DNA of 64,000 nucleotides from Escherichia coli (GCF_009931435.1 NZ_CP043414.1); one strand, 5' to 3'; shown: positions 32,449 to 53,597, counted from the stretch's first letter. Notes: generated by a model from the sequence alone, not told the origin. Numbers and translations: made by a program.

Positions 32449-33092
32449 CGCTGCAGCTCATCTAATGCAGGGGCGTCCAGATGCGAGATGTCCCCTGCGG
32501 TTTCAACCACCCAGCCAGACGCCAGCCACAAGCTTTCCTGATAATCCACGCGCGAAATAGAACAGTTACGCAGACGTAAGCGACGCTCTGCCCATGCTGG
32601 TAATCCGAGAATCGTACTCACCAGGCATCCCAGTGCAATACCGTGGCTCACCAGCAGCGGTCGGCTTCCCTGCGGTAATTCCCGACAAGATTCCAGTGCC
32701 GCATTGACACGATCGCTGAGCTCCTGCATAGACTCGCCTTCAGGAATACGTCCGTCGACAGTGCCATTGACCAGTTGGCGACGCCAGTTTTCTTCTTCTT
32801 CGGTGAGTGAATCGATATTTCTTGTTTCCAGTACACCCATATTTAATTCACGCAGGCGAGAATCAAAGATGATGTCACAGCCGCAGGCCTGGGCGATGAT
32901 TTCCGCCGTGCGGCGGGTGCGCCCTAAATCGCTACTGATGATATGCGTAATGCCAAGCTCTTTGGCACGGGTCGCCACCTGCATCGCCTGTTGCTCACCT
33001 TTGGCAGTCAGCGGGCTGTCAGACTGGCCCTGAATACGTCGCTCGGCGTTCCACTGCGTTTCACCGTGGCGGACTAGGTATACCTGTAACAT
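32445..33092 (-). CDS. gpmB: histidine-phosphatase family protein GpmB (YtjC)
   Basis: 215 aa MLQVYLVRHGETQWNAERRIQGQSDSPLT. Confidence 0.93.
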   Translation of the reverse strand: MLQVYLVRHGETQWNAERRIQGQSDSPLTAKGEQQAMQVATRAKELGITHIISSDLGRTRRTAEIIAQACGCDIIFDSRLRELNMGVLETRNIDSLTEEEENWRRQLVNGTVDGRIPEGESMQELSDRVNAALESCRELPQGSRPLLVSHGIALGCLVSTILGLPAWAERRLRLRNCSISRVDYQESLWLASGWVVETAGDISHLDAPALDELQR

Positions 33093-33131
33093 GCTTTTTT
33101 TCCGTATACTGCTGTAACGTTAATTTTCTGA

Positions 33132-33994
<863 letters not shown>

Positions 33995-34068
33995 TTAGCG
34001 GGGGAAGCAAAATGCCTCCCCCGGTTGTACTCGCTAAAGAGTACGATAGCATATCATAAACGTGCGGA

Positions 34069-36006
34069 TCAGTAACGACGTCCCCATTCCGTGGCGCTCA
34101 TCAACGTTGGTTTATCCCCCATGAAATAGCGGTAGTAAGCGTCATAAGCCAGCACGTTCTTCACATAACCGCGCGTCTCAGAGAACGGAATACTCTCGAC
34201 AAATGCCACTGCGTCGATACGACCAGCGCTGTTGCCAAGCCAGGTGCGCACTCGTCCAGGTCCGGCGTTATAAGCTGCTGAGGCGAAAATACGGTTATTG
34301 CCAAACTGCTGATAAACATATTGCAGGTAACTGGTGCCGATGTTGATGTTCGTTTCCGGATCCAGCAATTGCCCAGGGCTGCTGTAGCCAGGAATAGAGA
34401 ACATCTTCACCGTATGGGTCGCCGTACCAGGCATAATCTGCATCAGCCCGCTGGCCCCTACCGGTGACTTCACTTTCGGATTCCAGGCGCTCTCCTGACG
34501 GGCAATCGCCATCGCATAGCTTTGCGGGATCTCCTTACCGCTGGTGTAACGTTTGAAAAAATCGTTGTAGGCCAGCGGGAATCGTTCTTCCAGATGATCC
34601 CACAACTTCCCGGCGATCGTCGCCTGAACGCTGAGATCCCACCATTGGTTGTTGAAAGCATACCGTGCCAGCTGTGCCTGCTCTGTTTTTGACTTGCTCT
34701 TCACCAGATTGGCCCACTCGCTACGCGCGGTGTTATCGAGATTCCAGTACATCAACTCGCGCACGCGCGCCATCTCCGGCCCCTGAGTCAGGGTGCTGTC
34801 AACATTCTGCGGCGCTTTATCAATCTTCAGCTCATACTCTTCGCCGATGCGCTGTGCAGCAACCATCGGGTAGAAACCACGCTGTTGCATGAGTTGATGC
34901 AGAATCTCTTTCGCTTCAGCTTCACGTCCGCGTTCCAGCAATAAATCGGCCTGCCAGTAACGCCATTCATCTTTCTCTTTCGCTTCCATCGGCAAACGCG
35001 CCAGCCAGGTATTCAGGCCACGCCGATCGCCAGTACCAAGCGCCATCCGCACTCGGCGTTCAATCAACGAGGTGGATTGCGAGCGCATAATGGCGTCATC
35101 GCGCCATTTCGCCTGCTCGTCGGTGACATCGTTGCCCATCAAACGCCAGGCGACGATATCGCGCAGTTCCTGAATCTGATCTTCATTAAGCTGCTGTGCC
35201 TGAGCAAGCGATGGAATCATCAGCCGTGCATTTTCAGCATCCTGCCGTGCCACGCTGGCAAACGCCACCGCCGCCATTTGACGGGTAAAATCGGTCGCAC
35301 CGGTTGTACGCGCGAAGGTCAGTACCGTATTAGGGTTGTTCGCCAGAGAAATAATCGCCGAGGCGATAGTCTGGTAATCAGCAGGCATCTGACCTGCCAG
35401 CACTGTCACCAGACCCGTGTTACCCGCTTTCATCGCCAGACGGATACGCTCTAAATACGCCAGCGGATCTTGTTTGCCTGACGCACGCCAGACACTAAAT
35501 AACTTGTCACAAGCGTTAGGCTGGCTCTTGCCGGTTAGCCACAACTCTTTCGCCCCTTGCCAGGCTTCTTCACTCTGCCCGGTGTTCCATTTCGCATAGT
35601 AGTAATTACATTGCGCTTCGGTAGTTCCGGGCTTTTCCGGGCTAAAGGCTAACAAGCCACGCCAGTCTTCACGCCGCGCCAGTTCATTGACGAAACGAGA
35701 TTGCAGCGTGCGAGCGGGAGGAAGCGTGGGGTTAGCGCGAACAAAGTTAGTGACCGTCACCGCCGGTTGATTCATCAGGTCATCGGTGATCTGACGGTAT
35801 TCCAGGTAGGGATAAAGCGGATAATCTTTCAGTCCAGGCATCATTTGTTCGACCACATCCATTTGTCGATTATCCCAGGCCTGCTTAATTTGCGCGTAAC
35901 GGCTACGCTGCTCATCCAGTGAGTCGGCTCGCGCCACGCTGCTGACCGTCAGCAGACAGACACCGACAGCCAACAGCCGCCAGGTAACGTGTTTGGCTTT
36001 TTCCAC
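34069..36006 (-). CDS. slt: soluble lytic murein transglycosylase Slt70
   Basis: 645 aa with signal peptide, superhelical repeats and C-terminal lysozyme-like domain (ESAWNPKVKSPVGASGLMQIMPGTA). Confidence 0.96.
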   Translation of the reverse strand: MEKAKHVTWRLLAVGVCLLTVSSVARADSLDEQRSRYAQIKQAWDNRQMDVVEQMMPGLKDYPLYPYLEYRQITDDLMNQPAVTVTNFVRANPTLPPARTLQSRFVNELARREDWRGLLAFSPEKPGTTEAQCNYYYAKWNTGQSEEAWQGAKELWLTGKSQPNACDKLFSVWRASGKQDPLAYLERIRLAMKAGNTGLVTVLAGQMPADYQTIASAIISLANNPNTVLTFARTTGATDFTRQMAAVAFASVARQDAENARLMIPSLAQAQQLNEDQIQELRDIVAWRLMGNDVTDEQAKWRDDAIMRSQSTSLIERRVRMALGTGDRRGLNTWLARLPMEAKEKDEWRYWQADLLLERGREAEAKEILHQLMQQRGFYPMVAAQRIGEEYELKIDKAPQNVDSTLTQGPEMARVRELMYWNLDNTARSEWANLVKSKSKTEQAQLARYAFNNQWWDLSVQATIAGKLWDHLEERFPLAYNDFFKRYTSGKEIPQSYAMAIARQESAWNPKVKSPVGASGLMQIMPGTATHTVKMFSIPGYSSPGQLLDPETNINIGTSYLQYVYQQFGNNRIFASAAYNAGPGRVRTWLGNSAGRIDAVAFVESIPFSETRGYVKNVLAYDAYYRYFMGDKPTLMSATEWGRRY

Positions 36007-36216
36007 AAGCGCATCCTCTAAGTGTCAATACATCAATGCAGCGTCATGCCGCGTAATAGATTTATGCTAACCAGTCATTGCCGTTTACGCCACGTTACGG
36101 ACACTTTTTTACTTTTACTGCGAGGGTGATCGACCGGCTGGGATTAGATAAGGAAACAGGCTACACTTCGCCTTTGAAAAATCATCATCACGATAAACAT
36201 AGAGGCGAAGTCCAAC

Positions 36217-37884
36217 GTGGCTCAATTCGTTTATACCATGCATCGTGTCGGCAAAGTTGTTCCGCCGAAACGTCATATTTTGAAAAACATCTCTCTGAGT
36301 TTCTTCCCTGGGGCAAAAATTGGTGTCCTGGGTCTGAACGGCGCGGGTAAGTCTACCCTGCTGCGCATTATGGCGGGCATTGATAAAGACATCGAAGGTG
36401 AAGCGCGTCCGCAACCGGATATCAAGATTGGTTACCTGCCGCAGGAACCTCAGCTGAACCCGGAACACACCGTGCGTGAGTCCATTGAAGAAGCGGTTTC
36501 TGAAGTGGTTAACGCTCTGAAACGTCTGGATGAAGTGTATGCGCTGTACGCCGATCCGGATGCCGATTTTGACAAGCTGGCCGCTGAACAAGGCCGTCTG
36601 GAAGAGATCATTCAGGCTCATGACGGTCATAACCTGAACGTTCAGCTGGAGCGTGCGGCGGATGCGCTGCGTCTGCCGGACTGGGACGCGAAAATCGCTA
36701 ACCTTTCCGGTGGTGAGCGTCGTCGCGTGGCGTTGTGCCGCCTGCTGTTGGAAAAACCAGACATGCTGCTGCTCGACGAACCGACCAACCACCTGGATGC
36801 CGAATCCGTAGCGTGGCTGGAACGCTTCCTGCACGACTTCGAGGGCACCGTGGTTGCGATTACCCACGACCGTTACTTCCTCGATAACGTTGCAGGCTGG
36901 ATCCTCGAACTTGACCGCGGTGAAGGTATTCCGTGGGAAGGTAACTACTCCTCCTGGCTGGAGCAGAAAGATCAGCGTCTGGCGCAGGAAGCTTCACAAG
37001 AAGCAGCGCGTCGTAAGTCGATCGAGAAAGAGCTGGAGTGGGTACGTCAGGGAACTAAAGGCCGTCAGTCGAAAGGTAAAGCACGTCTGGCGCGCTTTGA
37101 AGAGCTGAACAGCACCGAATATCAGAAACGTAACGAAACCAACGAACTGTTTATTCCACCTGGACCGCGTCTGGGCGATAAAGTGCTGGAAGTCAGCAAC
37201 CTGCGTAAATCTTACGGCGATCGTCTGCTGATTGATGATCTGAGCTTCTCGATCCCGAAAGGGGCGATCGTCGGGATCATCGGTCCGAACGGCGCGGGTA
37301 AATCAACCCTGTTCCGTATGATCTCTGGTCAGGAACAGCCAGACAGCGGCACCATCACTTTAGGTGAAACGGTGAAACTGGCATCTGTCGATCAGTTCCG
37401 TGACTCAATGGATAACAGCAAAACCGTTTGGGAAGAAGTTTCCGGCGGGCTGGATATCATGAAGATCGGTAACACCGAGATGCCAAGCCGCGCCTACGTT
37501 GGCCGCTTTAACTTTAAAGGGGTTGATCAGGGTAAACGCGTTGGCGAACTCTCCGGTGGTGAGCGTGGTCGTCTGCATCTGGCGAAGCTGCTGCAGGTTG
37601 GCGGCAACATGCTGCTGCTCGACGAACCGACCAACGACCTGGATATCGAAACCCTGCGTGCGCTGGAAAACGCCCTGCTGGAGTTCCCGGGCTGCGCGAT
37701 GGTTATCTCGCACGACCGTTGGTTCCTCGACCGTATCGCCACACACATTCTGGATTACCAGGATGAAGGTAAAGTTGAGTTCTTTGAAGGTAACTTTACC
37801 GAGTACGAAGAGTACAAGAAACGCACGCTGGGCGCAGACGCGCTGGAGCCGAAGCGTATCAAGTACAAGCGTATTGCGAAGTAA
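36217..37884 (+). CDS. ettA: energy-dependent translational throttle ABC-F protein EttA (YjjK)
   Basis: 555 aa, two ABC cassettes (GLNGAGKST / GPNGAGKST, LSGGERRR / LSGGERGR). Confidence 0.97.
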   Translation: MAQFVYTMHRVGKVVPPKRHILKNISLSFFPGAKIGVLGLNGAGKSTLLRIMAGIDKDIEGEARPQPDIKIGYLPQEPQLNPEHTVRESIEEAVSEVVNALKRLDEVYALYADPDADFDKLAAEQGRLEEIIQAHDGHNLNVQLERAADALRLPDWDAKIANLSGGERRRVALCRLLLEKPDMLLLDEPTNHLDAESVAWLERFLHDFEGTVVAITHDRYFLDNVAGWILELDRGEGIPWEGNYSSWLEQKDQRLAQEASQEAARRKSIEKELEWVRQGTKGRQSKGKARLARFEELNSTEYQKRNETNELFIPPGPRLGDKVLEVSNLRKSYGDRLLIDDLSFSIPKGAIVGIIGPNGAGKSTLFRMISGQEQPDSGTITLGETVKLASVDQFRDSMDNSKTVWEEVSGGLDIMKIGNTEMPSRAYVGRFNFKGVDQGKRVGELSGGERGRLHLAKLLQVGGNMLLLDEPTNDLDIETLRALENALLEFPGCAMVISHDRWFLDRIATHILDYQDEGKVEFFEGNFTEYEEYKKRTLGADALEPKRIKYKRIAK

Positions 37885-37894
37885 TGCATAAAAT

Positions 37895-37925
37895 GCCGGA
37901 TGCGGCGCGCCAGCATCGCATCCGG
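37895..37925. terminator. REP-like hairpin between convergent ettA and antitoxin gene
   Basis: gccggatgcg-N11-cgcatccggt inverted repeat. Confidence 0.5.
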
Positions 37926-37939
37926 TAATAGTTAAATGA

Positions 37940-38224
37940 TTAATGGGAGGCAAGTTCCCGGAAAAAGGCAGGATTTTCTTTAATTGTGGCAAGTACTTTT
38001 GCAGCCAATCCCGTAGGATTTCTTCGCTTCGATTCCCAGCTTTTAATGGTATCCACACTGGTTCCCAGAGCTTTTGCCATCTCACTTTGCGAAACGTTGA
38101 GTTGCTCACGAATAGCTTTAACATCCGCAATTTCGTAGCGGGTCACCCGTGCAGGTTCTTTTAAACCTTGTTTAATCTCGACAGCCTCTTCCAGAGAGGT
38201 TTTCAACTCATCAAAAAAACTCAT
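37940..38224 (-). CDS. HigA2-like XRE-family antitoxin
   Basis: 94 aa MSFFDELKTSLEEAVEIKQGL...IREQLNVSQSEMAKALGTSVDTIKSWESKRRNPTGLAAKVLATIKENP; C-terminal HTH; SD GGTGAGG; start 2 nt after toxin stop. Confidence 0.8.
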   Translation of the reverse strand: MSFFDELKTSLEEAVEIKQGLKEPARVTRYEIADVKAIREQLNVSQSEMAKALGTSVDTIKSWESKRRNPTGLAAKVLATIKENPAFFRELASH

Positions 38225-38225
38225 T

Positions 38226-38558
38226 TTATACCTCACCTTTGAGCAGTTTCGTCAACTTCTTTAGTTGAGCTTTTTCCGTATCTGTCAGACTGTCTTTGGC
38301 ATTCTTCGGATAGGCCATAATCAAATAAATAATCTCTTCCGTCGCCAGAAAGTAAATTATTCTGACACTACCACTTTTTCCCTGTGAACCCGCAGCCATT
38401 CGGACTTTACGCAATCCACCAGTCTGCTGAATGAGATCACCTTTATCGGGAGTTCCGATGAGTTCTTTTTGCAATTCCTTTAATTCATCATCGGTTGCAA
38501 TCTGCTTGATCTGACGCGTAAACATTGGCGTCTCTATAAATATTATCGCCTTGCCCAT
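38226..38558 (-). CDS. HigB2-like (RelE/ParE superfamily) toxin
   Basis: 110 aa MGKAIIFIETPMFTRQIKQIATDDELKELQKELIGTPDKGDLIQQTGGLRKVRMAAGSQGKSGSVRIIYFLATEEIIYLIMAYPKNAKDSLTDTEKAQLKKL; resembles Vibrio HigB-2; SD GGGAGGGG upstream. Confidence 0.8.
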   Translation of the reverse strand: MGKAIIFIETPMFTRQIKQIATDDELKELQKELIGTPDKGDLIQQTGGLRKVRMAAGSQGKSGSVRIIYFLATEEIIYLIMAYPKNAKDSLTDTEKAQLKKLTKLLKGEV

Positions 38559-38574
38559 TACCCCTCCCTGGCAG

Positions 38575-38607
38575 GTACATTGTACACCAAAATGGAGTAC
38601 TAAGTAC
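38575..38607 (-). promoter_or_regulatory. putative operator/promoter of the toxin-antitoxin pair
   Basis: Two GTAC-containing palindromes (GTACATTGTAC and GTACTAAGTAC) 20-50 bp upstream of the toxin start. Confidence 0.45.
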
Positions 38608-38649
38608 ACTTTTGAATCAGTAATATCACTCAACATCTTATAAAGATGA

Positions 38650-39882
38650 TTATCCCTGCTCCCCCATCATCTCCCGCACCAACTCCACGCAGCGCAGGAA
38701 ACGGCTGTCGTAATCGTCCTCTTCAACCCGCACAAATTCGATATTGTTCTCTTCCAGCATCTCCACCAGCAAGTTCTGGAACTCTTTGCGATCCACCGAA
38801 CTGCCGAGACTGCGTAAACCATCCGCCACCCACGGCGTGTTGTTCTCCAGCAGAATCACCAGATCAAAACGGTATTCATCGATCAGCGCCTGTACGAACG
38901 GATGCTCGCGCCCTTCGTACTTTTTGCAGAACGCCTGAGTTGTCACAAAATCGGTGTCGATAAACGCCACTTTATTGGCATATTTTACTGCAAAATCAAT
39001 ATATTGAGCGTGTCCAAGTGCGATTTTATCGTAGTCGGAATACTGCAATGCAATCTCATCGCCGCCAAGATGCGAAAAGACATAATCGCGACCATATTCC
39101 CATGCACTGGTAGTGTTGAAGATATTGGCAAGTTTGTTTACCAGGGTGGATTTACCGCTCGACTCGCCGCCGAGGATCGCCACGGTGCGCACAAAGAACG
39201 GCTTCACTTCGGTAGGAATATATTCCCAGTAGCGGAACGGATTTTCGCGGATCTGCGCACCACTGATACTCATAAAAGTACGTTTCGGATCGACCAACAC
39301 CGTTTCGATCCCCAGATGCTCCATATACTGCGGCGCGTCGGCTTCTTCCGAGGTGTAGATCAGATCCGGCTGGATCCCTTTTTCAGCCATAAACTTTTTG
39401 ATGCCGTTGCTCCACACATCCCAGCCATGCGGATACGGCTCCATGCCCTCTTCGTTGAAGGCATGAATGCGAATATTTTTCTGATATTTAAAAGTTTGCA
39501 ATAACCAGCGCAGACGATCCGGCACCGTGGGCTGCTGCGACATGGCGCTGTCTTCGAACAACGCGCGGTCGCGGGTATCGTCAAAGCCCATAATGATATG
39601 CAGCTCGTCAACCTGACTACAGGCACGCTGGATAAGGTAGATATGTCCGGTATGCAGCGGGTAAAACTTACCGAATACAACACCAATAGTTTTCTTCTGC
39701 CGGGGAAATTCAAGTCCCAAATAACGGTGCAACGCCTCCAGCTTTTGCGCGCTGGGGCTTTTAATTTTGGCATTCAGTAACTGGCTTAAATACCCTTTGG
39801 TCATACCGCTGGCATCAGCCACCTGCTGTAGCGTACAGCCCTGTTGCTTGATGGCAGTTTTCAGATAATCAAATGACGACAT
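38650..39882 (-). CDS. nadR: bifunctional NMN adenylyltransferase / ribosylnicotinamide kinase / repressor NadR
   Basis: 410 aa MSSFDYLKTAIKQQGCTLQQVADASGMTKGYLSQLLN; HTH plus nucleotidyltransferase plus P-loop kinase domains. Confidence 0.96.
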   Translation of the reverse strand: MSSFDYLKTAIKQQGCTLQQVADASGMTKGYLSQLLNAKIKSPSAQKLEALHRYLGLEFPRQKKTIGVVFGKFYPLHTGHIYLIQRACSQVDELHIIMGFDDTRDRALFEDSAMSQQPTVPDRLRWLLQTFKYQKNIRIHAFNEEGMEPYPHGWDVWSNGIKKFMAEKGIQPDLIYTSEEADAPQYMEHLGIETVLVDPKRTFMSISGAQIRENPFRYWEYIPTEVKPFFVRTVAILGGESSGKSTLVNKLANIFNTTSAWEYGRDYVFSHLGGDEIALQYSDYDKIALGHAQYIDFAVKYANKVAFIDTDFVTTQAFCKKYEGREHPFVQALIDEYRFDLVILLENNTPWVADGLRSLGSSVDRKEFQNLLVEMLEENNIEFVRVEEDDYDSRFLRCVELVREMMGEQG

Positions 39883-39902
39883 ATCTCCCTCCGTATCTCT
39901 CA

Positions 39903-41285
39903 TTATAAGTCGTCGAACACGCTAAGCGCGTCGGAGAGTTTTTTAACGCCAAAAATCTGCATCCCTTCCGGCGCTTTTTTCGGCACGTTGGCTGCCGGAA
40001 CAATCGCCCGCCGAAAACCATGTTTCGCCGCTTCAGAAATCCGCTCCTGGCCGCTGGGCACCGGGCGGATCTCCCCTGCCAGCCCGACTTCACCAAACAC
40101 CACCAGATCCTGCGGTAGCGGTCTGTCGCGCAGGCTGGAAACCATCGCCAGTAGTAACGCTAAATCGGCACTGGTTTCCGTCACCTTCACGCCGCCGACC
40201 ACGTTCACAAATACATCCTGATCGGCCATTTGCAGACCACCGTGACGGTGCAACACCGCCAGCAGGATCGCCAAACGGTTTTGCTCCAGCCCCACTGCCA
40301 CGCGGCGCGGATTCGCCATCATCGAGTGATCGACCAGCGCCTGGATCTCCACCAGCAGCGGACGAGTTCCTTCCCACACCACCATCACTGAGCTGCCGGA
40401 GGTCACTTCATCGCCGCGACTTAAGAAAATTGCCGAAGGGTTACTGACTTCACGCAGCCCCTGCTCGGTCATCGCAAATACGCCCAGTTCATTTACCGCG
40501 CCGAAGCGGTTTTTATGGCTGCGCAGGGTGCGGAAACGGGAGTCGGCATCGCCGTCCAGAAGCACCGAGCAGTCGATACAGTGTTCCAGCACTTTAGGGC
40601 CTGCCAGCGAACCATCTTTGGTTACGTGCCCCACCATGACAATCGCCACACCGCGCGTTTTGGCGAAGCGCGTCAGATAAGCCGCCGTTTCACGCACCTG
40701 TGCCACGCTGCCAGGCGATGATTGTACATCCGCCATATGCATCACCTGGATGGAGTCAATGACCATCAGCTTCGGTTGCTCTTCTTCGGCAATCAGGCAG
40801 ATCTGTTCGATGCTGGTTTCCGACAACATATTGAGATTGTCAGTCGGCAGGCCGAGGCGATGAGCGCGCATTGCCACCTGTTGCAGCGACTCTTCGCCAG
40901 TGACATATAGCGTTTTCATCTGCTGCGCCAGTTTGCACAGCGTTTGCAGTAGCAGCGTGGATTTCCCGGCTCCTGGGTTACCGCCAATCAGAATAGCGCT
41001 TCCTGGCACTACGCCACCGCCTAATACGCGGTCGAACTCTTTAAATCCGGTGGAAAAACGCGGCAACTCCTCAAGGCTGATATCGGAGAGTTTCTGGACT
41101 TTTGCCACCCCGGCGCTACCGGCATAGCCACTGAGACGCTCGTTACGCGCCACCGTTGGCGACGCAGCAAGACGCACCTCGGTGATGGTGTTCCAGGCAT
41201 GGCAGGCGCTGCACTGCCCCTGCCAGCGCGGATAATCGGCCCCGCATTCATTACAAACAAAGGCGCGTTTTGGAGCTTTTGCCAC
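39903..41285 (-). CDS. radA: DNA repair protein RadA (Sms)
   Basis: 460 aa from GTG; C4 zinc finger (FVCNECGADYPRWQGQCSACHAWN), Walker A GGNPGAGKST, Lon-like C-terminus. Confidence 0.96.
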   Translation of the reverse strand: MAKAPKRAFVCNECGADYPRWQGQCSACHAWNTITEVRLAASPTVARNERLSGYAGSAGVAKVQKLSDISLEELPRFSTGFKEFDRVLGGGVVPGSAILIGGNPGAGKSTLLLQTLCKLAQQMKTLYVTGEESLQQVAMRAHRLGLPTDNLNMLSETSIEQICLIAEEEQPKLMVIDSIQVMHMADVQSSPGSVAQVRETAAYLTRFAKTRGVAIVMVGHVTKDGSLAGPKVLEHCIDCSVLLDGDADSRFRTLRSHKNRFGAVNELGVFAMTEQGLREVSNPSAIFLSRGDEVTSGSSVMVVWEGTRPLLVEIQALVDHSMMANPRRVAVGLEQNRLAILLAVLHRHGGLQMADQDVFVNVVGGVKVTETSADLALLLAMVSSLRDRPLPQDLVVFGEVGLAGEIRPVPSGQERISEAAKHGFRRAIVPAANVPKKAPEGMQIFGVKKLSDALSVFDDL

Positions 41286-41333
41286 GGTGTACCTCGTTAA
41301 TACTGTGCCGCCCGCAGGATGACGGGCGGACAA

Positions 41334-42302
41334 TTACTTCTGATTCAGGCTGCCAGAGAGGATGCAGAATACCCCCATCAGGTCAGCGTGACGGATGGTG
41401 ACTTCCGTCTTTTCATTCACTTTTGGCTTGGCATGGTAGGCAATCCCCAGACCTGCCGCTTTGATCATCGGCAGGTCGTTGGCACCATCGCCAATCGCCA
41501 CGGTTTGCGCCAGCGGGATTTCATACTCCTGCGCCAGGCGGGTAAGGGTTTTCGCTTTATACTGAGCGTCTACAATGTCGCCAATCACATTACCGGTAAA
41601 TTTACCGTCCATGATCTCCAGTTCATTGGCTACTACGGCGGTCAGGCGCAGCTTATCGCGCAGGTATTCGGCAAAGAAGGTAAAACCGCCGGAGGCAATC
41701 GCCACTTTCCAGCCCAGCGTTTCCAGTTTGAGTACCAGCTGCGTTAAGCCTGGCATCAGCGGCAGATTTTCCCGCACCTGTTGCAGAATGTTCGCGTCAG
41801 CGCCTTTCAGCGTCGCCACGCGGCTGCGCAGGCTGGCGGTAAAATCGAGTTCGCCGCGCATCGCCCGCTCGGTTACTTCCGCCACCATCTCGCCGGTTCC
41901 GGCCAGTTTGGCAATTTCGTCAATACATTCAATCTGAATGGCGGTGGAATCCATGTCCATCACCAGCAGACCTGGCGTGCGCAGATGCGGAATTTTCCCC
42001 AGCGGCGCGACATCCAGTTGTGCTTCATGGGCCAGGCGCGTAGCCCGGGCGGTAAGCGAACCTGCCAGACGAATCACCTGATAATCTTCCACGCACCAGG
42101 CGGCAACAATCACCATCGCCGCGCCCAGTTTGCTTTGGTACTGGGTCAGACGTTGTTTATCCAGCCCACGACCATACAGCAGCCAGCCGCTACGACCTGC
42201 GTGGTAATCCAGTGGCATCACTTCATCACCACTTAATGAAAGAGGCAGACCAGGCCATAAAGAGACATCTTCAGGCAGGTCGCACCAGGTAATGTTAGGC
42301 AT
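41334..42302 (-). CDS. serB: phosphoserine phosphatase
   Basis: 322 aa MPNITWCDLPEDVSLWPGLPLSLSGDEV; HAD motif DMDSTAI. Confidence 0.96.
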   Translation of the reverse strand: MPNITWCDLPEDVSLWPGLPLSLSGDEVMPLDYHAGRSGWLLYGRGLDKQRLTQYQSKLGAAMVIVAAWCVEDYQVIRLAGSLTARATRLAHEAQLDVAPLGKIPHLRTPGLLVMDMDSTAIQIECIDEIAKLAGTGEMVAEVTERAMRGELDFTASLRSRVATLKGADANILQQVRENLPLMPGLTQLVLKLETLGWKVAIASGGFTFFAEYLRDKLRLTAVVANELEIMDGKFTGNVIGDIVDAQYKAKTLTRLAQEYEIPLAQTVAIGDGANDLPMIKAAGLGIAYHAKPKVNEKTEVTIRHADLMGVFCILSGSLNQK

Positions 42303-42407
42303 TAAGGCTCCTGTAAAATCGTTCGAAGCAGGGAAAATAACGCATGAGGCTACCTTGTATCCATTGCTTCTGGCAACATTAAGTCTCAAATTTTCAAAGG
42401 GTGGAAG

Positions 42408-43052
42408 ATGGCTCGCACAAAACTGAAATTCCGGCTGCATCGGGCAGTGATTGTCCTGTTCTGTCTTGCCTTGTTAGTGGCGCTGATGCAGGGGGCATCA
42501 TGGTTTAGTCAAAACCACCAGCGACAGCGTAATCCACAGCTGGAAGAACTGGCCCGCACCCTGGCGCGGCAGGTAACGCTGAACGTTGCGCCGCTGATGC
42601 GCACCGACTCGCCGGATGAAAAACGTATTCAGGCGATCCTCGATCAGTTAACGGATGAAAGCCGCATCCTCGACGCGGGCGTGTATGACGAACAAGGCGA
42701 TCTTATCGCCCGTTCTGGCGAAAGCGTCGAAGTGCGTGACCGGCTGGCGCTCGACGGTAAAAAAGCGGGCGGCTATTTTAACCAGCAGATTGTCGAACCC
42801 ATTGCAGGGAAAAATGGTCCGCTTGGCTATCTGCGCCTGACGCTCGACACCCATACGCTCGCCACCGAAGCTCAACAGGTGGATAACACCACTAACATTT
42901 TACGCCTGATGTTGTTGCTCTCGCTGGCAATCGGCGTGGTGCTGACCCGCACGCTGCTACAGGGTAAACGCACCCGCTGGCAGCAATCCCCCTTCCTGTT
43001 AACCGCCAGCAAACCGGTGCCGGAAGAGGAAGAAAGCGAGAAAAAAGAGTGA
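42408..43052 (+). CDS. ytjB: membrane protein YtjB (Smp)
   Basis: 214 aa MARTKLKFRLHRAVIVLFCLALLVALMQGASWF. Confidence 0.9.
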   Translation: MARTKLKFRLHRAVIVLFCLALLVALMQGASWFSQNHQRQRNPQLEELARTLARQVTLNVAPLMRTDSPDEKRIQAILDQLTDESRILDAGVYDEQGDLIARSGESVEVRDRLALDGKKAGGYFNQQIVEPIAGKNGPLGYLRLTLDTHTLATEAQQVDNTTNILRLMLLLSLAIGVVLTRTLLQGKRTRWQQSPFLLTASKPVPEEEESEKKE

Positions 43053-43079
43053 CCCATTACTACAAGAAAGGAAATCGTT

Positions 43080-44096
43080 ATGTCCACATTACGCCTGCTC
43101 ATCTCTGACTCTTACGATCCGTGGTTTAACCTTGCGGTGGAAGAGTGTATTTTTCGCCAGATGCCCGCCACGCAGCGCGTTCTGTTTCTCTGGCGCAATG
43201 CTGACACCGTGGTGATTGGTCGCGCGCAGAACCCGTGGAAAGAGTGTAATACCCGGCGGATGGAAGAAGATAACGTTCGCCTGGCGCGGCGCAGTAGCGG
43301 TGGCGGCGCGGTGTTCCACGATCTCGGCAATACCTGTTTTACCTTCATGGCTGGCAAGCCGGAATACGATAAAACGATCTCCACCTCGATTGTGCTCAAT
43401 GCACTGAACGCGCTCGGTGTCAGCGCCGAAGCGTCCGGACGTAACGATTTGGTGGTGAAAACCGCCGAAGGCGACCGTAAAGTCTCAGGCTCGGCCTATC
43501 GCGAAACCAAAGATCGTGGCTTCCATCACGGCACCTTGCTACTCAATGCCGACCTTAGCCGCCTGGCAAACTATCTCAACCCGGATAAAAAGAAACTGGC
43601 GGCGAAAGGCATTACGTCGGTACGTTCCCGCGTGACCAATCTGACCGAATTGCTGCCGGGAATTACCCATGAGCAGGTTTGCGAAGCCATAACCGAGGCC
43701 TTTTTCGCCCATTATGGCGAGCGTGTAGAAGCGGAAATTATCTCCCCGGACAAAACGCCGGACTTGCCGAACTTCGCCGAAACCTTTGCCCGCCAGAGTA
43801 GCTGGGAATGGAATTTCGGACAGGCTCCAGCGTTCTCGCATCTGCTGGATGAACGCTTTACCTGGGGCGGCGTAGAACTGCATTTCGACGTCGAAAAAGG
43901 CCATATCACCCGCGCCCAGGTGTTTACCGATAGCCTCAACCCCGCACCTCTGGAAGCTCTCGCCGGACGACTGCAAGGCTGCCTGTACCGCGCTGACATG
44001 CTGCAACAAGAGTGTGAAGCGCTGTTGGTTGACTTCCCTGAACAGGAAAAAGAGCTACGGGAGTTGTCGACGTGGATAGCGGGAGCGGTACGGTAA
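43080..44096 (+). CDS. lplA: lipoate-protein ligase A
   Basis: 338 aa [57 protein letters not shown]. Confidence 0.96.
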
Positions 44097-44127
44097 CTCG
44101 CTGATTAAAATATCCAGGGAAGGAAAT

Positions 44128-44391
44128 ATGATCGATTTGAAGAACCAGGAACGGGAGATTATCAATTTAATGTTCAGCCAGGGTATATCCTGACTAACCG
44201 CCGTGCGTATCAGGCATAAACTATCACTTGCTGAAGTTAGTAAAATGTTGGGTATCTCGATTAATTCTCTAAAACAAATCGAAAAGACGGAACGGCTTAG
44301 TTCAAACATCAAAAACAAAATGGCAGGAATTTATGGTTGTCCGCCAGAGTTGCTGATATGCCCTTACTGGATGACGGCTGAACATAAATGA
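44128..44391 (+). pseudogene. short XRE-type HTH ORF interrupted by an in-frame TGA; occupies the position of yjjJ in K-12
   Basis: ATG at 44128 with strong SD (GGGAAGGA); frame reads MIDLKNQEREIINLMFSQGIS-TGA-LTAVRIRHKLSLAEVSKMLGISINSLKQIEKTERLSS...; TGA at 44191-44193; HTH-like helix pattern. Confidence 0.4.
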
Positions 44392-44489
44392 ATAGATTCG
44401 TGAATAGATACTCGAATGGATTTAATTTTCTATCTATATGAAAAATAATAGTAAATCTATAAATCAGTCGCTATTGATGAATAGATACT

Positions 44490-44519
44490 AAAAAGCCGGA
44501 GCGGTCTCCCGCTCCGGCT
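44490..44519 (-). terminator. deoD rho-independent terminator
   Basis: agccggagcgg-tctc-ccgctccggct hairpin followed on the minus strand by a U-run. Confidence 0.75.
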
Positions 44520-44551
44520 TCACACGACAATCGCCTTTCAGCGAAACACAA

Positions 44552-45271
44552 TTACTCTTTATCGCCCAGCAGAACGGATTCCAGTGCGATTTTGATCATG
44601 TCGTTGAAGGTGGTCTGACGCTCAGCGGCAGTGGTTTGCTCGTGAGTGCGGATGTGGTCAGACACGGTGCAGATGGTCAGGGCTTTCGCGCCAAACTCTG
44701 CAGCCACGCCGTAGATACCAGCCGCTTCCATTTCCACGCCGAGGATGCCGTATTTTTCCATCACGTCGAACATTTCGCCGTCCGGAGAGTAGAACAGGTC
44801 AGCGGAGAACAGGTTACCAACGCGAGCATCAATGCCCAGTGCTTTAGCTGCATCTACCGCGTTACGCACCATGTCGAAGTCAGCGATAGCTGCAAAGTCA
44901 TGGTCTTTAAAACGGATGCGGTTAACTTTGGAATCGGTGCAGGCACCCATACCAATCACTACGTCACGCAGTTTTACGTGCGGCAGAACTGCGCCACAGG
45001 AACCAACGCGAATGATTTTCTTCACGCCGAAATCGGTGATCAGTTCTTTAGTGTAGATGGAGCAGGACGGGATACCCATACCGTGGCCCATTACAGAAAT
45101 TTTGCGGCCTTTGTAAGTACCGGTGAAGCCCAGCATACCGCGAACGTTGTTCACTTCACGAGCATCTTCAAGGAAAGTTTCAGCAATATACTTCGCACGC
45201 AGCGGGTCGCCTGGCATCAAAACTACGTCAGCGAAATCGCCCATTTCTGCATTAATGTGTGGAGTAGCCAT
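44552..45271 (-). CDS. deoD: purine nucleoside phosphorylase
   Basis: 239 aa [36 protein letters not shown]. Confidence 0.98.
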
Positions 45272-45327
45272 CATTTTATCCTTTTTGTGACATATTAAAG
45301 GCGGAGTCACTGCTCCGCCCAAATCCA

Positions 45328-46572
<1,245 letters not shown>

Positions 46573-46602
46573 TCAAATTTAAATGATCAGATCAGTATAC
46601 CG

Positions 46603-47925
46603 TTATTCGCTGATACGGCGATAGACAGTTGGTGTGCTTTCCGGTGCTTTATCGGCAAGTTTAATTGCCGCTTTCACCGCTTTCGCCGCTTCCTGCCAGC
46701 TGTTTTCGTCTTTCGCGTGGATAACCGCCAGCGGACGCTGGCCGTCGACCTGGTCGCCCAGACGCGCCATATCAGTAAAGCCGACGCTGTAATCGATGGT
46801 GTCAGATGCCTGACGGCGACCGCCGCCCATTGCAACCACTGCCATTCCCAGCGCGCGGGTATCCATTTCACTGACAAAACCTTCGGTATCAGCATAGACT
46901 GCTTTCGTCAGCATCGCTGTCGGCAGATACTTCGCGTAGTTCTCAACGAAGTCGGTCGGGCCTTTTTGTGCTGCCACCATACGACCAAAGACTTCTGCCG
47001 CTTTACCGTTGTCCAGCACCGCCTGCAATTTCGCGCGCGCTTCGGCGTCATCTTTCGCCAGTTTGCCGGAGATCAACATCTCCACGCACAGTGCCATCGT
47101 GACATCAAACAGACGCGGGTTACGGTACTCACCTGTCAGGAACTGCACCGCTTCACGTACTTCAACCGCGTTACCGGCACTGGAGGCCAGCACCTGATTC
47201 ATGTCGGTGAGTAGCGCGGTGGTGCGCACGCCAGCGCCGTTAGCCACGCCAACAATCGCTTCGGCAAGGGCTTCAGAGAGTTCGTAGGTCGGCATAAATG
47301 CACCGCTACCCACTTTCACGTCCATCACCAGTGCATCCAGACCTTCCGCCAGTTTCTTCGCCAGGATCGAGGCAGTGATCAGCGGGATGGAATCCACGGT
47401 TGCGGTAATATCGCGGGTCGCATAGAAACGTTTATCCGCCGGAGCCAGTGAACTGGTCTGGCCAATAATCGCCACGCCAACATCTTTAATAATTTCGCGG
47501 AAACGGTTGTCATCTGGGAAGATGTCGAAGCCAGGGATGGATTCCAGTTTGTCGAGCGTACCGCCAGTATGGCCGAGGCCGCGACCGGAGATCATCGGAA
47601 TATAGCCACCGCAGGCAGCGACCATTGGCCCCAACATCAGCGAAGTCACATCGCCGACGCCGCCGGTCGAGTGTTTATCAACAATCGGGCCATTCAGATG
47701 CAGGCTTTTCCAGTCGAGAACGGTTCCTGAATCTCGCATCGCCATCGTCAGCGAGACACGCTCCGGCATTGTCATATCGTGGAAGAAAATGGTCATCGCG
47801 AGAGCGGCAATCTGCCCTTCGGAGATAGTGTTGTCGCGAATGCCGTTGATAAAGAAGCGAATTTCTTCATCGCTCAGCGCATGACCATCACGTTTTTTAC
47901 GAATAATTTCTTGTGCGAGAAACAA
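46603..47925 (-). CDS. deoA: thymidine phosphorylase
   Basis: 440 aa [52 protein letters not shown]. Confidence 0.97.
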
Positions 47926-49129: not shown

Positions 49130-50680
49130 ATGCCCACTTCTCATGAAAATGCACTGCAACAACGTTGCCAGCAAATTGTCACCAGCCCGGTACTTAGCCC
49201 GGAGCAGAAACGCCATTTTCTGGCGCTGGAAGCAGAAAACAATCTGCCTTACCCGGCGTTGCCTGCCGAAGCCCGCCGCGCGCTGGATGAAGGTGTAATC
49301 TGCGATATGTTTGAAGGTCATGCGCCGTATAAACCGCGCTATGTCTTACCCGATTACGCCCGTTTTTTGGCCAACGGTTCCGAATGGCTGGAGCTGGAAG
49401 GCGCAAAAGATCTTGATGACGCACTCTCTCTGCTGACCATTCTTTACCACCACGTTCCTTCGGTCACATCGATGCCGGTCTACCTGGGGCAACTGGATGC
49501 GTTGTTGCAACCGTATGTTAGAATTCTAACACAAAACGAGATCGATATTCGAATAAAACGTTTCTGGCGTTACCTCGACAGAACCCTGCCAGACGCCTTT
49601 ATGCACGCCAATATTGGCCCGTCTGATTCACCCATTACCCGTGCGATTTTACGCGCAGACGCAGAGCTGAAGCAGGTTTCACCGAACCTGACTTTTATCT
49701 ACGATCCTGAAATCACCCCTGATGACCTGCTGCTGGAAGTGGCGAAAAACATCTGTGAATGTAGCAAACCGCACATCGCCAACGGTCCCGTGCATGATAA
49801 AATTTTCACAAAAGGGAGCTACGGGATTGTGAGCTGTTACAACTCACTGCCGCTGGCGGGTGGTGGCAGTACGCTGGTACGCCTCAACCTGAAAGCCATT
49901 GCCGAGCGCAGCGAATCGCTGGATGACTTCTTTACGCGCACTCTACCGCACTACTGCCAACAGCAGATCGCCATCATCGATGCGCGGTGTGAATTCCTCT
50001 ATCAACAATCACACTTCTTTGAGAATAGCTTCCTGGTGAAAGAAGGGCTGATTAACCCTGAACGTTTTGTGCCAATGTTTGGCATGTACGGACTGGCAGA
50101 AGCGGTTAACTTGTTGTGTGAGAAAGAAGGAATTGCCGCACGTTACGGTAAAGAAGCCGCTGCGAATGAAGTGGGTTATCGCATTAGCGCGCAACTGGCG
50201 GAGTTTGTCGCCAATACCCCCGTGAAATATGGCTGGCAAAATCGCGCCATGCTACACGCACAGTCGGGGATAAGTTCCGATATCGGCACCACGCCGGGCG
50301 CGCGTTTGCCGTATGGCGATGAGCCAGATCCGATCACCCATCTGCAAACTGTCGCCCCGCATCATGCTTATTATTATTCCGGCATCAGCGACATTTTGAC
50401 GCTCGACGAAACCATCAAACGTAATCCGCAGGCGCTGGTACAGCTTTGCCTCGGTGCCTTTAAAGCCGGAATGCGTGAATTTACCGCCAATGTCAGCGGT
50501 AACGATCTGGTTCGCGTTACCGGTTATATGGTGCGTTTGTCGGATTTAGAAAAATATCGTGCCGAAGGTTCACGTACCAATACCACCTGGCTGGGAGAAG
50601 AAGCCGCACGCAACACTCGTATTCTGGAACGCCAGCCGCGCGTGATAAGCCATGAACAGCAGATGCGCTTTAGTCAGTAA
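49130..50680 (+). CDS. yjjI: glycyl-radical-enzyme-like protein YjjI
   Basis: 516 aa; C-terminal glycyl-radical-type motif LVRVTGYMV; followed by its cognate radical-SAM activase. Confidence 0.9.
49505..49520. promoter_or_regulatory. DeoR operator palindrome located inside the yjjI coding region
   Basis: Perfect 16-bp palindrome TGTTAGAATTCTAACA, 588 bp from the deoC-proximal site. Confidence 0.65.
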
Positions 50681-51515
50681 GATTATCCCCTTCTCCTGCG
50701 TTGACGGGCCAGGCAGTCGTCTGGCTCTGTTTTTACAGGGCTGCAATCTGCGCTGCAAAAACTGTCACAATCCGTGGACGATGGGGCGCTGTAATGATTG
50801 CGGTAAGTGCGTGCCACAGTGTCCGCATCAGGCGTTGCAGATTATTAACAGCAAAGTAGTGTGGAACGCAGCCGTCTGCGAGCAGTGTGATACCTGTCTG
50901 AAGATGTGTCCGCAACATGCCACGCCGATGGCGCAATCCATGAGCGTGGATGAGGTGCTTAGACATATCCGCAAAGCGGTGCTGTTTATCGAAGGGATAA
51001 CGGTAAGCGGCGGCGAAGCCACGACCCAGCTGCCGTTTGTGGTGGCGCTTTTTACTGCCATCAAAAACGATCCGCAACTGTGCCATCTCACCTGTCTGGT
51101 GGACAGTAACGGCATGTTGAGAGAAACCGGCTGGGAAAAATTGCTCCCGGTGTGCGACGGCGCGATGCTCGATCTCAAAGCGTGGGGAAGCGAATGTCAT
51201 CAGCAGCTAACCGGACGCGATAATCAGCAGATCAAGCGCAGCATTAGTCTGCTTGCCGAGCGCGGCAAACTGGCAGAACTGCGTTTGCTGGTAATCCCAG
51301 GCCATGTGGATTATTTGCAGCATATCGATGAGCTGGCGGCGTTTATCAAGGGACTTGGCGATGTTCCGGTACGCCTGAACGCGTTTCATGCTCACGGCGT
51401 GTATGGCGAGGCGCAAAGCTGGGCGAGCGCCACGCCGGAAGACGTTAAGCAATTGGCTGATGCGTTACGGGAGCACGGGGTGAGCCGATTAATATTTCCG
51501 GCGCTGTATTTGTGA
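50652..51515 (+). CDS. yjjW: glycyl-radical enzyme activating enzyme (radical SAM) YjjW
   Basis: 287 aa; CNLRCKNC (CxxxCxxC) radical-SAM cluster motif plus ferredoxin-like Cys clusters ([24 protein letters not shown]). Confidence 0.9.
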
Positions 51516-51740
51516 CATGGCGGATGCAGCCTACGGTTCGGCACAGACCTGTAGGCATGATAAGACGCGTCAGCGTCGCATCAGGCATTGTGCGCCAACT
51601 GCCGGATGCGGCGTGAACGCCTTATCCGGCCTACGGTTCGGCACAGACTTGTAGGCATGATAAGACGCGTCAGCGTCGCATCAGGCATTGTGCGCCGACT
51701 GCCGGATGCGGTGTGAACGCCTTATCCGGCTTACGAAGGG
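51516..51740. repeat. BIME cluster with two tandem 100-bp REP-containing units
   Basis: Unit cctacggttcggcacagac(c/t)tgtaggcatgataagacgcgtcagcgtcgcatcaggcattgtgcgcc(a/g)actgccggatgcgg(c/t)gtgaacgccttatccgg repeated at 51531-51630 and 51631-51730. Confidence 0.9.
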
Positions 51741-51744
51741 CAGA

Positions 51745-52527
51745 CTACCCACGAACGTTAAACACCGCATACGTGTTATTAAGCAACACTTCGGCAATCT
51801 CATCCGCGGGTTCCGGGCGTAACTCGCACAGCACGGCAAACACACGGGCGGCCTGTTCAGGGCGATTAGGCTGCCCCTGAAAACCATTGAGCGGCATATC
51901 CGGTGCGTCGGTTTCCAACAACAACGATGCCAACGGTAATTTTGCGATGACATCGCGGGTTTTACTGGCGCGTGGATAGGTGATAGTACCGCCTACGCCA
52001 ATTTTGTAGCCCAGCTGCACAAACCGTTCGGCCTGTTGCTGGCTGCCAGAAAAACCATGAACCACACCAGTGCGTGGCAAATTTTGGCGTTTAAGATGCA
52101 TCGCCAGTTTGTCGTGCGTGCGCCGTGAATGAAGGATCACCGGCAGATCGTAGCGTTTCGCCAGTTTCAGTTGTTCATCAAGCAACCTCTGCTGCCTCTC
52201 AAATTGCGGATCGTCACCAAAGAGATCCAGGCCGATCTCCCCCACCGCCACCACCTTCGTCGGACGTCTTTCCAACGCCTGCTGTAATTGATCCAGCGAT
52301 GCATCGTTATGTTTTTCCAACATCCCCGGATGCAACCCTAAAGCGGCATACAGTGGTTGATAATTTTCCGCTAACGCCTGCACACGGGCAAAATTTGCCG
52401 CCTCGGTGGCCGGAACAATGATCTTGCCTACGCCCGCTTGTGCCGCGCGTTGCAGGCTGGCCTCTTCATCGCCACTAAACGGCGGGAAATCAAAATGGCA
52501 GTGGGTGTCGATAAAACGGCAAATCAA
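51745..52527 (-). CDS. yjjV: TatD-family metal-dependent hydrolase YjjV
   Basis: 260 aa MICRFIDTHCHFDFPPFSGDEEASLQRAAQAGVGKIIVPA. Confidence 0.92.
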   Translation of the reverse strand: MICRFIDTHCHFDFPPFSGDEEASLQRAAQAGVGKIIVPATEAANFARVQALAENYQPLYAALGLHPGMLEKHNDASLDQLQQALERRPTKVVAVGEIGLDLFGDDPQFERQQRLLDEQLKLAKRYDLPVILHSRRTHDKLAMHLKRQNLPRTGVVHGFSGSQQQAERFVQLGYKIGVGGTITYPRASKTRDVIAKLPLASLLLETDAPDMPLNGFQGQPNRPEQAARVFAVLCELRPEPADEIAEVLLNNTYAVFNVRG

Positions 52528-53597
52528 GCCAAATCCTCATTGTTAAATGTCGGGTCGTTCGCCTGTGGAGCGTCTATCACCTCGGTAACCAGCGTATCGT
52601 TGGCGACGGGTGCAGGCGGAATAACGATCGACTCCGGCGTCACCACCGGCACCAGATGGCGGCTCAGCGGCGCTTTTTCAGTCAATAACTTACCGACCGT
52701 TGCCAGAAAATAACGCCCGCATAAACGCCCAAGTTTATAGTCTTCACGCAGCGCCGGAATCCGACTGCCGAGCGCGATACTATGTAATGGCTTCGGCGGA
52801 TAAATTTCGAATATCCTCAACTGGCCCGGTGGTTTCTCAATAAATTGCTGAATCTCACGATAGCTGGTTTCATGATGCTGCACCAGATTGACCAGCGGCT
52901 GCAGGCTACTGTCACCCAACCAGCGTTCCATGCGTTTGAACCACTGCGGCGTATAGTACATTTGTGACGGCACAGTGCGGATGACGACCAACGTTTTTGC
53001 GCCCTGCCTTGCCGCCTCTTTAACCGGGATCGCATCACTGATCCCGCCATCCAGGTAATTAATGCCTTCCAGCGACACTCCGCTACGATAAAAGCCAGGT
53101 ATTGCACTGGAGGCGCGAATCACATCCAGCCAGTTCTGTTTGGTTGGCAAAAAGTAATTCGGCGCATAGTCATCCTGACGACAAGCGCACATATAAAACG
53201 ATTTGCCGCTGTCAAATAGCCGCGCTGCGGTGTCCATTTGCAACGGCATCTGGCTTGCGGTGGCCTCCACCAGCCAGTCGAGATCGATAAGATTTCCTCC
53301 ACGGACAAAGCGCAATGGATCGAAAAATTCGCGTTTTGTGGTATAGCGCATGATGACTTTGCGCGCGTAACCGGGCTGATTGCAGATATACGCCGAGAGG
53401 TTCTGCGCCCCGGCAGATGTGCCGAGATAAAGATCGAAAGGATTAAACTGCGCGCGCATAAACTCATCCAGCACGCCAGCTGTGAAAATTCCACGCTGCC
53501 CGCCGCCTTCGCACACCAGAGCTATTCGTCCAGGCTGGAACGGCCTTAGCGACAACGGCGCAATATTACCAAGCGTTACAGGTATTCGCTGCCCCAC
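52524..53597 (-). CDS. yjjU: patatin-like phospholipase YjjU
   Basis: About 357 aa; patatin motifs GGGQRG and GTSAG; start codon uncertain (GTG). Confidence 0.88.
   Translation of the reverse strand: MGQRIPVTLGNIAPLSLRPFQPGRIALVCEGGGQRGIFTAGVLDEFMRAQFNPFDLYLGTSAGAQNLSAYICNQPGYARKVIMRYTTKREFFDPLRFVRGGNLIDLDWLVEATASQMPLQMDTAARLFDSGKSFYMCACRQDDYAPNYFLPTKQNWLDVIRASSAIPGFYRSGVSLEGINYLDGGISDAIPVKEAARQGAKTLVVIRTVPSQMYYTPQWFKRMERWLGDSSLQPLVNLVQHHETSYREIQQFIEKPPGQLRIFEIYPPKPLHSIALGSRIPALREDYKLGRLCGRYFLATVGKLLTEKAPLSRHLVPVVTPESIVIPPAPVANDTLVTEVIDAPQANDPTFNNEDLA

Follow-up and report, generated by a model that had tools for sequence, protein, structure and literature searches.

The way in which toxin-antitoxin pairs of the HigB2/HigA2 family operate has already been worked out in Vibrio cholerae (VCA0468/0469; PDB 5ja8, 5jaa and 8a0x; PMC5416850, PMC11006873). 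The toxin of this pair, VcHigB2, needs residues R51, R64, Y82 and K84, as found by alanine substitution, and lies nearer to RelE than to Rts1 HigB, while residues 3-22 of the antitoxin HigA2 suffice for toxin neutralisation (PMC5416850). The operator footprinted for V. cholerae HigA2 has the form TGTACGC-N5-GCGTACA and overlaps the -10 element (PMC11006873).

In E. coli, a pair listed as TA30, or 'parE-3/yiaG-2', was reported in the AIEC strain NRG857c and also in CFT073 (Bustamante & Vidal 2020, PMC7232551), and was described there as a genomic islet missing in K-12 and HS, where the interval measures 307 bp. With genes of 333 bp and 285 bp between nadR and ettA, TA30 is the same locus as the one studied here. 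The pair is thus already known, being annotated in RefSeq and listed in a published survey of E. coli toxin-antitoxin systems. The locus was not among the targets of the UPEC study of Norton & Mulvey, the accessions of its two proteins appeared in no searchable paper, and the searchable literature yielded no experiment on the E. coli pair. At the corresponding place in K-12, a small gene, nadS, has newly been detected as expressed by PIRT-seq (PMC12350097).

We analysed a 64,000-nucleotide (64-kb) stretch of E. coli DNA, hereafter the window, in which the two genes occupy the interval between the end of ettA (37884, plus strand) and the stop codon of nadR (38650-38652, minus strand). A first-pass annotation of the region had given this interval as 765 bp and had described in it a minus-strand, toxin-first bicistron coding for proteins of 110 and 94 amino acids; both the interval and the two ORFs were found as described (Table 1). 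The toxin stop codon TAA is followed, after a single nucleotide, by the ATG of the antitoxin, whose Shine-Dalgarno (SD) sequence lies inside the 3' end of the toxin gene, so that the layout is 333 nt, 1 nt, 285 nt. Precisely these two CDSs are called by RefSeq/PGAP in near-identical E. coli genomes, under the names 'type II toxin-antitoxin system RelE/ParE family toxin' and 'NadS family protein', and the antitoxin is identical to PGAP protein WP_000007436.1. A mechanical list of ORFs also offers longer forms, of 136 amino acids for the toxin and 98 for the antitoxin, but the starts giving 110 and 94 amino acids are preferred because they agree with the SD sequence, the PGAP calls and the homologues.

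Table 1. Features of the ettA-nadR region, with positions counted from the first nucleotide of the window.
Feature	Position	Strand	Basis or remark
ettA	36217-37884	+	convergent with nadR
REP-like perfect hairpin	37894-37927		lies where ettA and the antitoxin gene converge
Antitoxin gene, 94 aa, NadS family, HigA-2-like	37940-38224	-	NCBIfam NF041265, Pfam HTH_3, PDB 5jaa
Toxin gene, 110 aa, RelE-fold, HigB-2-like	38226-38558	-	Pfam RelE PF06296, PDB HigB-2
Segment deleted in K-12-type genomes	38256-38646 (approximate to a few bases)		alignments, junction alignment
Toxin Shine-Dalgarno sequence, GGGAGGGG	38561-38568	-	read from the sequence; strong
Proximal operator site (putative), GGTGTACAATGTACC	38574-38588	-	GTAC-N3-GTAC at 38575-38585
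Distal operator site (putative), GTGTACTTAGTACTC	38595-38609	-	GTAC-N3-GTAC at 38597-38607
nadR	38650-39882	-	convergent with ettA

Downstream of the antitoxin gene, the REP-like hairpin folds with -25.3 kcal/mol on the plus strand (z -4.0) and -20.9 kcal/mol on the minus strand (z -3.0). Since AUUUUAU comes next on the minus-strand RNA, transcription of the toxin-antitoxin pair probably terminates at this hairpin. K-12 has three REP copies here, which either replace the element or extend it. A scan of positions 36-40 kb with Rfam returned no RNA family. Over most of positions 33-47 kb, the window is only some 95-97% identical to K-12 and UTI89.

The toxin matches the Pfam family RelE (PF06296, E 5.9e-10), and also Gp49. 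Among solved structures, its significant matches are V. cholerae HigB-2 chains only (8a0x and 5ja8; E 7.5e-17, residues 6-102), with 38% identity over 97 residues. In the alignment with HigB-2, the residues R51, R64, Y82 and K84 correspond to R53, R66, Y83 and K85 of our toxin. All four are thus kept, and they are also kept almost throughout a set of 51 full-length homologues from other species (R53 in 51/51, R66 in 50/51, Y83 in 49/51 and K85 in 50/51). The antitoxin matches the NCBIfam NadS model NF041265 over its full length (positions 1-94 of 94) with 182.6 bits for a cut-off of 60. It consists of an N-terminal segment of about 32 residues, then a C-terminal XRE helix-turn-helix (HTH), which is recognized by Pfam HTH_3 (E 6e-10) and by the PDB entry of HigA-2 (5jaa; E 2.2e-6, 32% identity, residues 33-91). 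In the search against the PDB, the ~32 N-terminal residues showed no detectable similarity to the neutralising region of HigA2. These matches agree with what had been proposed at first pass, namely a HigB-2-like toxin of RelE/ParE fold and an XRE-HTH antitoxin.

The GTAC palindromes upstream of the toxin gene had been put forward as a likely operator, and this proposal gained weight from two sides. In all 64 kb of the window, there are just two matches to GTAC-N3-GTAC, both upstream of the toxin and 22 bp apart, for 0.34 occurrences expected from shuffles of the whole window. The motif also behaves as a footprint in relatives, for which we used 57 homologous loci (~8 kb each) from other Gammaproteobacteria, encoding a toxin 48-82% identical to ours. 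In about 50 of these, the motif is present 20-60 nt upstream of the toxin start, and it occurs almost nowhere else in the loci; in 56 of the 57, the toxin gene is directly followed by an antitoxin gene. A second site with equal spacing is found in Serratia and Enterobacter homologues (L004, L006, L010, L015 and L018). The scan for relatives listed no hit from E. coli or from E. fergusonii, even though strain ATCC 35469 of the latter encodes the toxin; for this reason, absence from the scan was not used as absence from a species.

The promoter itself is less easily recognized. A consensus scan returned no sigma-70 promoter over the operator. Assigned by eye, the best -10 candidate is TACAAT (38579-38584), within the proximal site; the -35 element is weak, and the distal site overlies the probable -35 region. 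In several of the related loci (e.g. L045, L023 and L051), the motif lies between a perfect -35 and a -10. Of the four residues with which V. cholerae HigA2 contacts bases, three are changed here according to our own mapping (R68 to D58, E71 to K61 and N72 to S62), and the recognition-helix positions D58, K61, S62 and R67 are near-invariant across the NadS family. Because these three contact residues differ, and because the half-sites are spaced by N3 instead of an effective N9, the geometry of the Vibrio operator cannot be transferred to this locus. GTGTAC-N3-GTAC may be taken as an operator consensus, testable, and common to the NadS family over many genera.

Altogether, the locus is very probably a chromosomal type II toxin-antitoxin operon of the HigB2/HigA2 (RelE PF06296 / NadS) family, with the working described here and the history described further below. 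One promoter, with its -10 candidate inside the proximal GTAC-N3-GTAC site, would serve both genes; translation of the antitoxin would probably be coupled to that of the toxin, given the single nucleotide between TAA and ATG and the SD sequence within the toxin 3' end, and the REP-like hairpin, which ettA shares, would terminate the transcript. As judged from its homologues, the toxin would be a ribosome-dependent, RelE-like mRNA endonuclease, and the architecture of the antitoxin suggests that its N-terminal segment neutralises the toxin. The dimeric C-terminal HTH would repress the operon via the two GTGTAC-N3-GTAC sites covering the promoter, and degradation of the labile antitoxin would set free a toxin that stops translation. 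The analysis demonstrates the homology, the conservation of residues and of the motif, the distribution among genomes and the make-up of the deletion, whereas toxicity, RNA cleavage, DNA binding, the position of the promoter and activation by proteolysis are inferred. So understood, this is an ordinary type II module.

We then quantified how the locus is distributed, by searching 5,426 complete E. coli genomes segment by segment. The toxin and promoter were present in 672 genomes (12.4%), the 3' half of the antitoxin in 728 (13.4%), and at least the relic of the antitoxin 5' part in 4,960 (91%). Each copy of the toxin was on the chromosome, one per genome. The interval itself occurs in four states: the intact one, of 765 bp, as in the window, MS6198 and UTI89 (672 genomes); an orphan full-length antitoxin in 373 bp, as in AR_0077 (about 56 genomes, by subtraction); a stump of the K-12 type in 307 bp, as in K-12 MG1655 (about 4,230 genomes); and an interval of 120 bp with no detectable relic, as in Esc26 (about 460 genomes).

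Between the window and UTI89, the toxin gene is 97.9% identical, with 6 synonymous substitutions and 1 non-synonymous, and the antitoxin gene 99.3% identical, with 2 and 0. The flanking genes are 97.2% identical for ettA (43 synonymous, 1 non-synonymous) and 94.3% for nadR (70 synonymous, 1 non-synonymous). The divergence of the cassette (97.9-99.3%) is therefore not an outlier with respect to its flanks (94.3-97.2%) and, to judge from sequence comparison, intact copies are under purifying selection. It could be argued that such copies are nevertheless inactive fossils, intact in sequence and yet without a working toxin-antitoxin, for example with an attenuated toxin and a retained regulator, given that the locus is decaying across the species. 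We consider this improbable, as neither ORF is shortened, the catalytic residues, the SD and both operator sites are intact, substitutions are mainly synonymous, and distant strains have the antitoxin protein in identical form.

The fate of the locus is best followed in K-12. The first-pass annotation had given a K-12 interval of under 100 bp, into which the cassette would be inserted in our strain. The ettA-nadR interval of K-12 MG1655 is in fact 307 bp, the figure also given in PMC7232551, and part of the same cassette survives in it as a relic, at the identical site. The segment kept corresponds to window positions 38117-38255, i.e. the last 9 codons of the toxin, the SD and start codon of the antitoxin, and its first ~36 codons. 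The deleted segment contains toxin codons 1-101, the toxin SD, both operator sites and the promoter, and the 3' half of the antitoxin is replaced by REP copies. What remains is the K-12 'nadS' CDS, of 55 amino acids, 33 nt past nadR. At first pass, the idea of an insertion was to be given up if K-12 carried the same two ORFs; taken literally, K-12 does not carry them, but what this condition was aimed at does apply, the locus being an old one in the course of loss and not a new gain.

The junction left by the toxin deletion was identical in all six toxin-less genomes examined (K-12, UTME-7, AR_0077, 472, AR437 and D3), which points to one deletion event. The deleted allele may alternatively have spread by recombination instead of descent. 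Further damage is seen in the stumps: in AR437 and D3, the ATG has become ATA and 1 nt is missing, and in B1.H1.18 the ATG has become TTG, with 10 nt deleted. In strain HS-02, the copy of the cassette is degraded. The REP pair of the K-12 type is also found in the 120-bp interval of Esc26, so that the Esc26 state looks derived from the K-12 relic state. An apparent extra 840 bp in strain GN06667 was discarded as an artefact of joining pieces, and the locus is normal in that strain. With a relic in 4,960 of the 5,426 genomes, an intact cassette in 672, and one common junction, the trend within E. coli is loss of the cassette, not gain.

The converse scenario, in which a mobile 'genomic islet' recently entered a short and empty ettA-nadR interval in this strain or lineage, is quite improbable in our view. 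It would fit with the presence of the intact pair in just 12% of complete E. coli genomes, with the plasmid-borne and horizontally mobile character of the family across Gammaproteobacteria, with the description of the locus as an islet absent from K-12 and HS (PMC7232551), and with the existence of E. coli strains, such as Esc26, whose interval is 120 bp. But the relic in 91% of the genomes is in register and at the same site, toxin-less genomes have one junction in common, and the 'empty' Esc26 contains the REP pair of the K-12 relic. A clean, remnant-free empty site was not found in close relatives, relics being present in K-12 and in 4,960/5,426 genomes. No direct repeats flanking the cassette, integrase or IS were seen in the 765-bp interval, and the cassette haplotypes have diverged to a similar extent as the genes on either side.

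An interval without the cassette does exist outside the genus. Two non-Escherichia enterobacterial genomes, with ~80-84% nucleotide identity to the window, were examined: one has a nadR-ettA interval of 93 bp with no trace of the cassette, and the other an unrelated GerE-type gene between nadR and ettA. Although these two relatives could be invoked for a recent arrival, the lack of any trace of the cassette in them argues for an insertion that is old, single, and early in the Escherichia lineage. The type strain of E. fergusonii, ATCC 35469, carries the full cassette at the same site. It was first considered as a dating point and then rejected: the block corresponding to window positions 33-47 kb is 98-99.8% identical to the window, for 74-86% in the adjacent cre genes, and the cassette thus lies inside an interspecies recombinant block. 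Because this block recently crossed the species boundary, the E. fergusonii cassette cannot date the insertion.

For the preferred reading, a type II operon that is being lost, the history would be the following. The module would belong by origin to a family often met on small mobilizable plasmids of Col type, and would have entered the convergent nadR-ettA interval early in the Escherichia lineage. In most E. coli, a single deletion of 391 bp would then have taken the toxin and the promoter, after which REP/BIME elements would have replaced the antitoxin 3' half, giving the K-12 state; lastly, the relic would be gaining frameshifts and start-codon losses, or be gone entirely. The nadR-ettA interval can be read in this way as a decay series in four steps: intact, orphan antitoxin, REP-truncated stump, and empty.

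A relative is carried by 889 plasmid records. The closest ones, ~80% identical, are on Col-type mobilizable plasmids of 4-7 kb, and the hosts are Yersinia, Hafnia, Pectobacterium, Serratia, Citrobacter, Shigella, Enterobacter and Klebsiella. This raises the question of whether the chromosomal copy and its toxin-less derivatives, i.e. the orphan full-length antitoxin (~56 genomes) and the 55-aa peptide of the K-12 type, confer 'anti-addiction' immunity against the ~80%-identical toxins of Col plasmids. The K-12 peptide retains exactly the segment presumed to neutralise the toxin, its residues 1-22 being identical to those of the intact antitoxin, and it is reported as translated, from a position 33 nt past nadR; residues 3-22 are enough for neutralisation by V. 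cholerae HigA2 (PMC5416850). Against such a role, the relic has lost its start codon or suffered frameshifts in several lineages, and it diverges faster than its flanks, and we regard anti-addiction as quite unlikely.

Phage records with a relative were only seven, all below 60% identity. Some type II toxin-antitoxin systems protect against phages, and the locus had been labelled a possible phage-defence-type module at first pass. In PHROGs, phrog_5869 and phrog_2104 give full-length matches for the two proteins, with no assigned function, and such pairs do therefore occur in phage genomes. PADLOC, however, returned no meaningful match, only weak CARF or generic HTH ones (E >= 1e-5), which leaves that label unsupported. 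The pair is flanked by housekeeping genes and not embedded in a defence island, and loss in 88% of the genomes does not fit with a strong general benefit. That the pair was selected as an anti-phage (abortive infection) module, rather than for addiction or stress response, is accordingly very unlikely.

Finally, a ParE-type toxin acting as a gyrase poison, to which the CDD superfamily 'ParE_toxin' quoted in PMC7232551, the PGAP name 'RelE/ParE family' and the fold common to RelE and ParE might lead, is in our view extremely unlikely, the Pfam search having given RelE PF06296 and Gp49 but no ParE model at E <= 10, the nearest solved relatives being all HigB-2 mRNases, and the four RNase residues of HigB2 being conserved. 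From its sequence matches, the published 'ParE-3' label of this toxin is probably a misnomer at the level of the superfamily.

When compared with known systems, the type II operon described here differs from the published account of TA30 in two respects: PMC7232551 gives a ParE-like toxin and a K-12 without the genes, whereas we find a HigB-2/RelE toxin and, in K-12, a relic, which is absent from that account and is added here. The K-12 'nadS' small ORF is the stump of the cassette antitoxin. NadS of K-12 (55 aa, WP_000007444.1) comes from the same antitoxin gene and shares 35 of its 55 positions with it, but it is truncated before the HTH, runs into REP-derived codons, and has neither toxin partner nor operator.

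The Col-type plasmid pairs are the nearest in organization. Plasmid pYR5 of Yersinia ruckeri (NZ_CP098700.1) has the identical layout of 333 nt, 1 nt and 285 nt, and RelE/NadS pairs of Col-type plasmids show ~80% amino-acid identity and the same GTGTAC-N3-GTAC motif upstream. These plasmid pairs adjoin mob and rep genes, where a role in addiction is natural, whereas the copy of the window is chromosomal and single-copy. More distant are the HigBA systems of E. coli K-12 (ygjN-ygjM) and of Proteus Rts1, which are toxin-first with an HTH antitoxin, as here, but whose toxin belongs to another family (PF05015 for HigB); a Pfam search of our toxin gave no match to PF05015.

With V. cholerae HigB2/HigA2, the likeness extends to most of the organization. 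The operon is toxin-first in both; the toxin is of RelE fold and ~110 aa long, with the same four catalytic residues, a GKxG loop, prone to disorder, that joins strands beta2 and beta3, and an IIY(Y/F) strand; the antitoxin is of ~100 aa with a C-terminal XRE HTH; and half-sites containing TGTAC overlap the -10 element, which is a candidate in our case. Identity is nevertheless just 38% for the toxin and 32% for the antitoxin HTH, no similarity can be recognized in the N-terminal segment presumed to neutralise the toxin, and of the four residues that contact bases, three are changed. The putative operator has two GTAC-N3-GTAC sites 22 bp apart, where Vibrio has one TGTACGC-N5-GCGTACA. Lastly, the Vibrio pair forms one of the cassettes of a superintegron; the pair described here lies between core genes.

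Between trpR/slt and deoA (33000-47000), the window matches the type strain of E. fergusonii, ATCC 35469 (locus L070, CU928158.2 4565571-4585867), at 98-99.8% identity over a block of at least 14 kb. The adjoining creA-creD/rob region (28-33 kb) shares just 74-86% identity with this same strain, and K-12 and UTI89 are both about 95-97% identical to the window over the two regions. The segment from 33000 to 47000 looks like a recent recombination block common to the lineage of the window and to E. fergusonii.

The lplA-deoD gap differs in gene content between K-12 and the window. It is occupied in K-12 by yjjJ, a 1.3 kb gene for a HipA-family toxin, and is reduced in the window to 455 bp (44097-44551), with a short HTH-like ORF and no yjjJ. 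In E. fergusonii, too, a short ORF takes the place of yjjJ. This site is a second presence/absence polymorphism of the window related to toxin-antitoxin genes. Further along, the yjjI, yjjW, yjjV and yjjU region (50000-53000) is only 90-95% identical to most E. coli (5,162 records), the top match reaching 98.5%. The same query also matched a repeat present in 7-53 copies per genome, probably REP/BIME elements of the yjjW-yjjV gap.

Outside Escherichia, the nadR-ettA interval of one enterobacterium (GCA_038449125.1, L065 4186-4770) carries a 194-aa GerE/LuxR-type gene unrelated to the toxin-antitoxin cassette; that of another, L064, consists of 93 bp with two hairpins. The convergent nadR-ettA interval appears to have served repeatedly as a landing site. 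Among plasmid records, the toxin was found at 100% identity in a 4.9-Mb E. coli "plasmid" of PLSDB (NZ_CP134663.1), evidently a chromosome misfiled among plasmids.

In three homologous loci, from Enterobacter, Lelliottia and Pseudenterobacter, the toxin and antitoxin genes are 55-95 nt apart, and the putative operator motif GTAC-N3-GTAC lies between them and is absent 5' of the toxin gene. This position suggests that, in this sub-branch, the antitoxin has its own internal promoter and operator.

Position of the operator motif in homologous loci, and of the short ORF of the window
Feature	Sequence	Coordinates	Location
GTAC-N3-GTAC	L017	4022-4032	toxin-antitoxin gap
GTAC-N3-GTAC	L019	4353-4363	toxin-antitoxin gap
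GTAC-N3-GTAC	L050	4352-4362	toxin-antitoxin gap
HTH-like ORF, 62 aa	window	44203-44391	lplA-deoD gap

In K-12 MG1655, the ettA-nadR interval (L001 1786-2092) encodes a 55-aa small protein, "nadS", whose expression was reported as newly detected by PIRT-seq (PMC12350097). In other strains, the nadS start codon is gone or the reading frame is shifted. K-12 NadS itself has neither HTH nor toxin partner, and is the N-terminal stump of the cassette antitoxin, joined to REP-derived codons.
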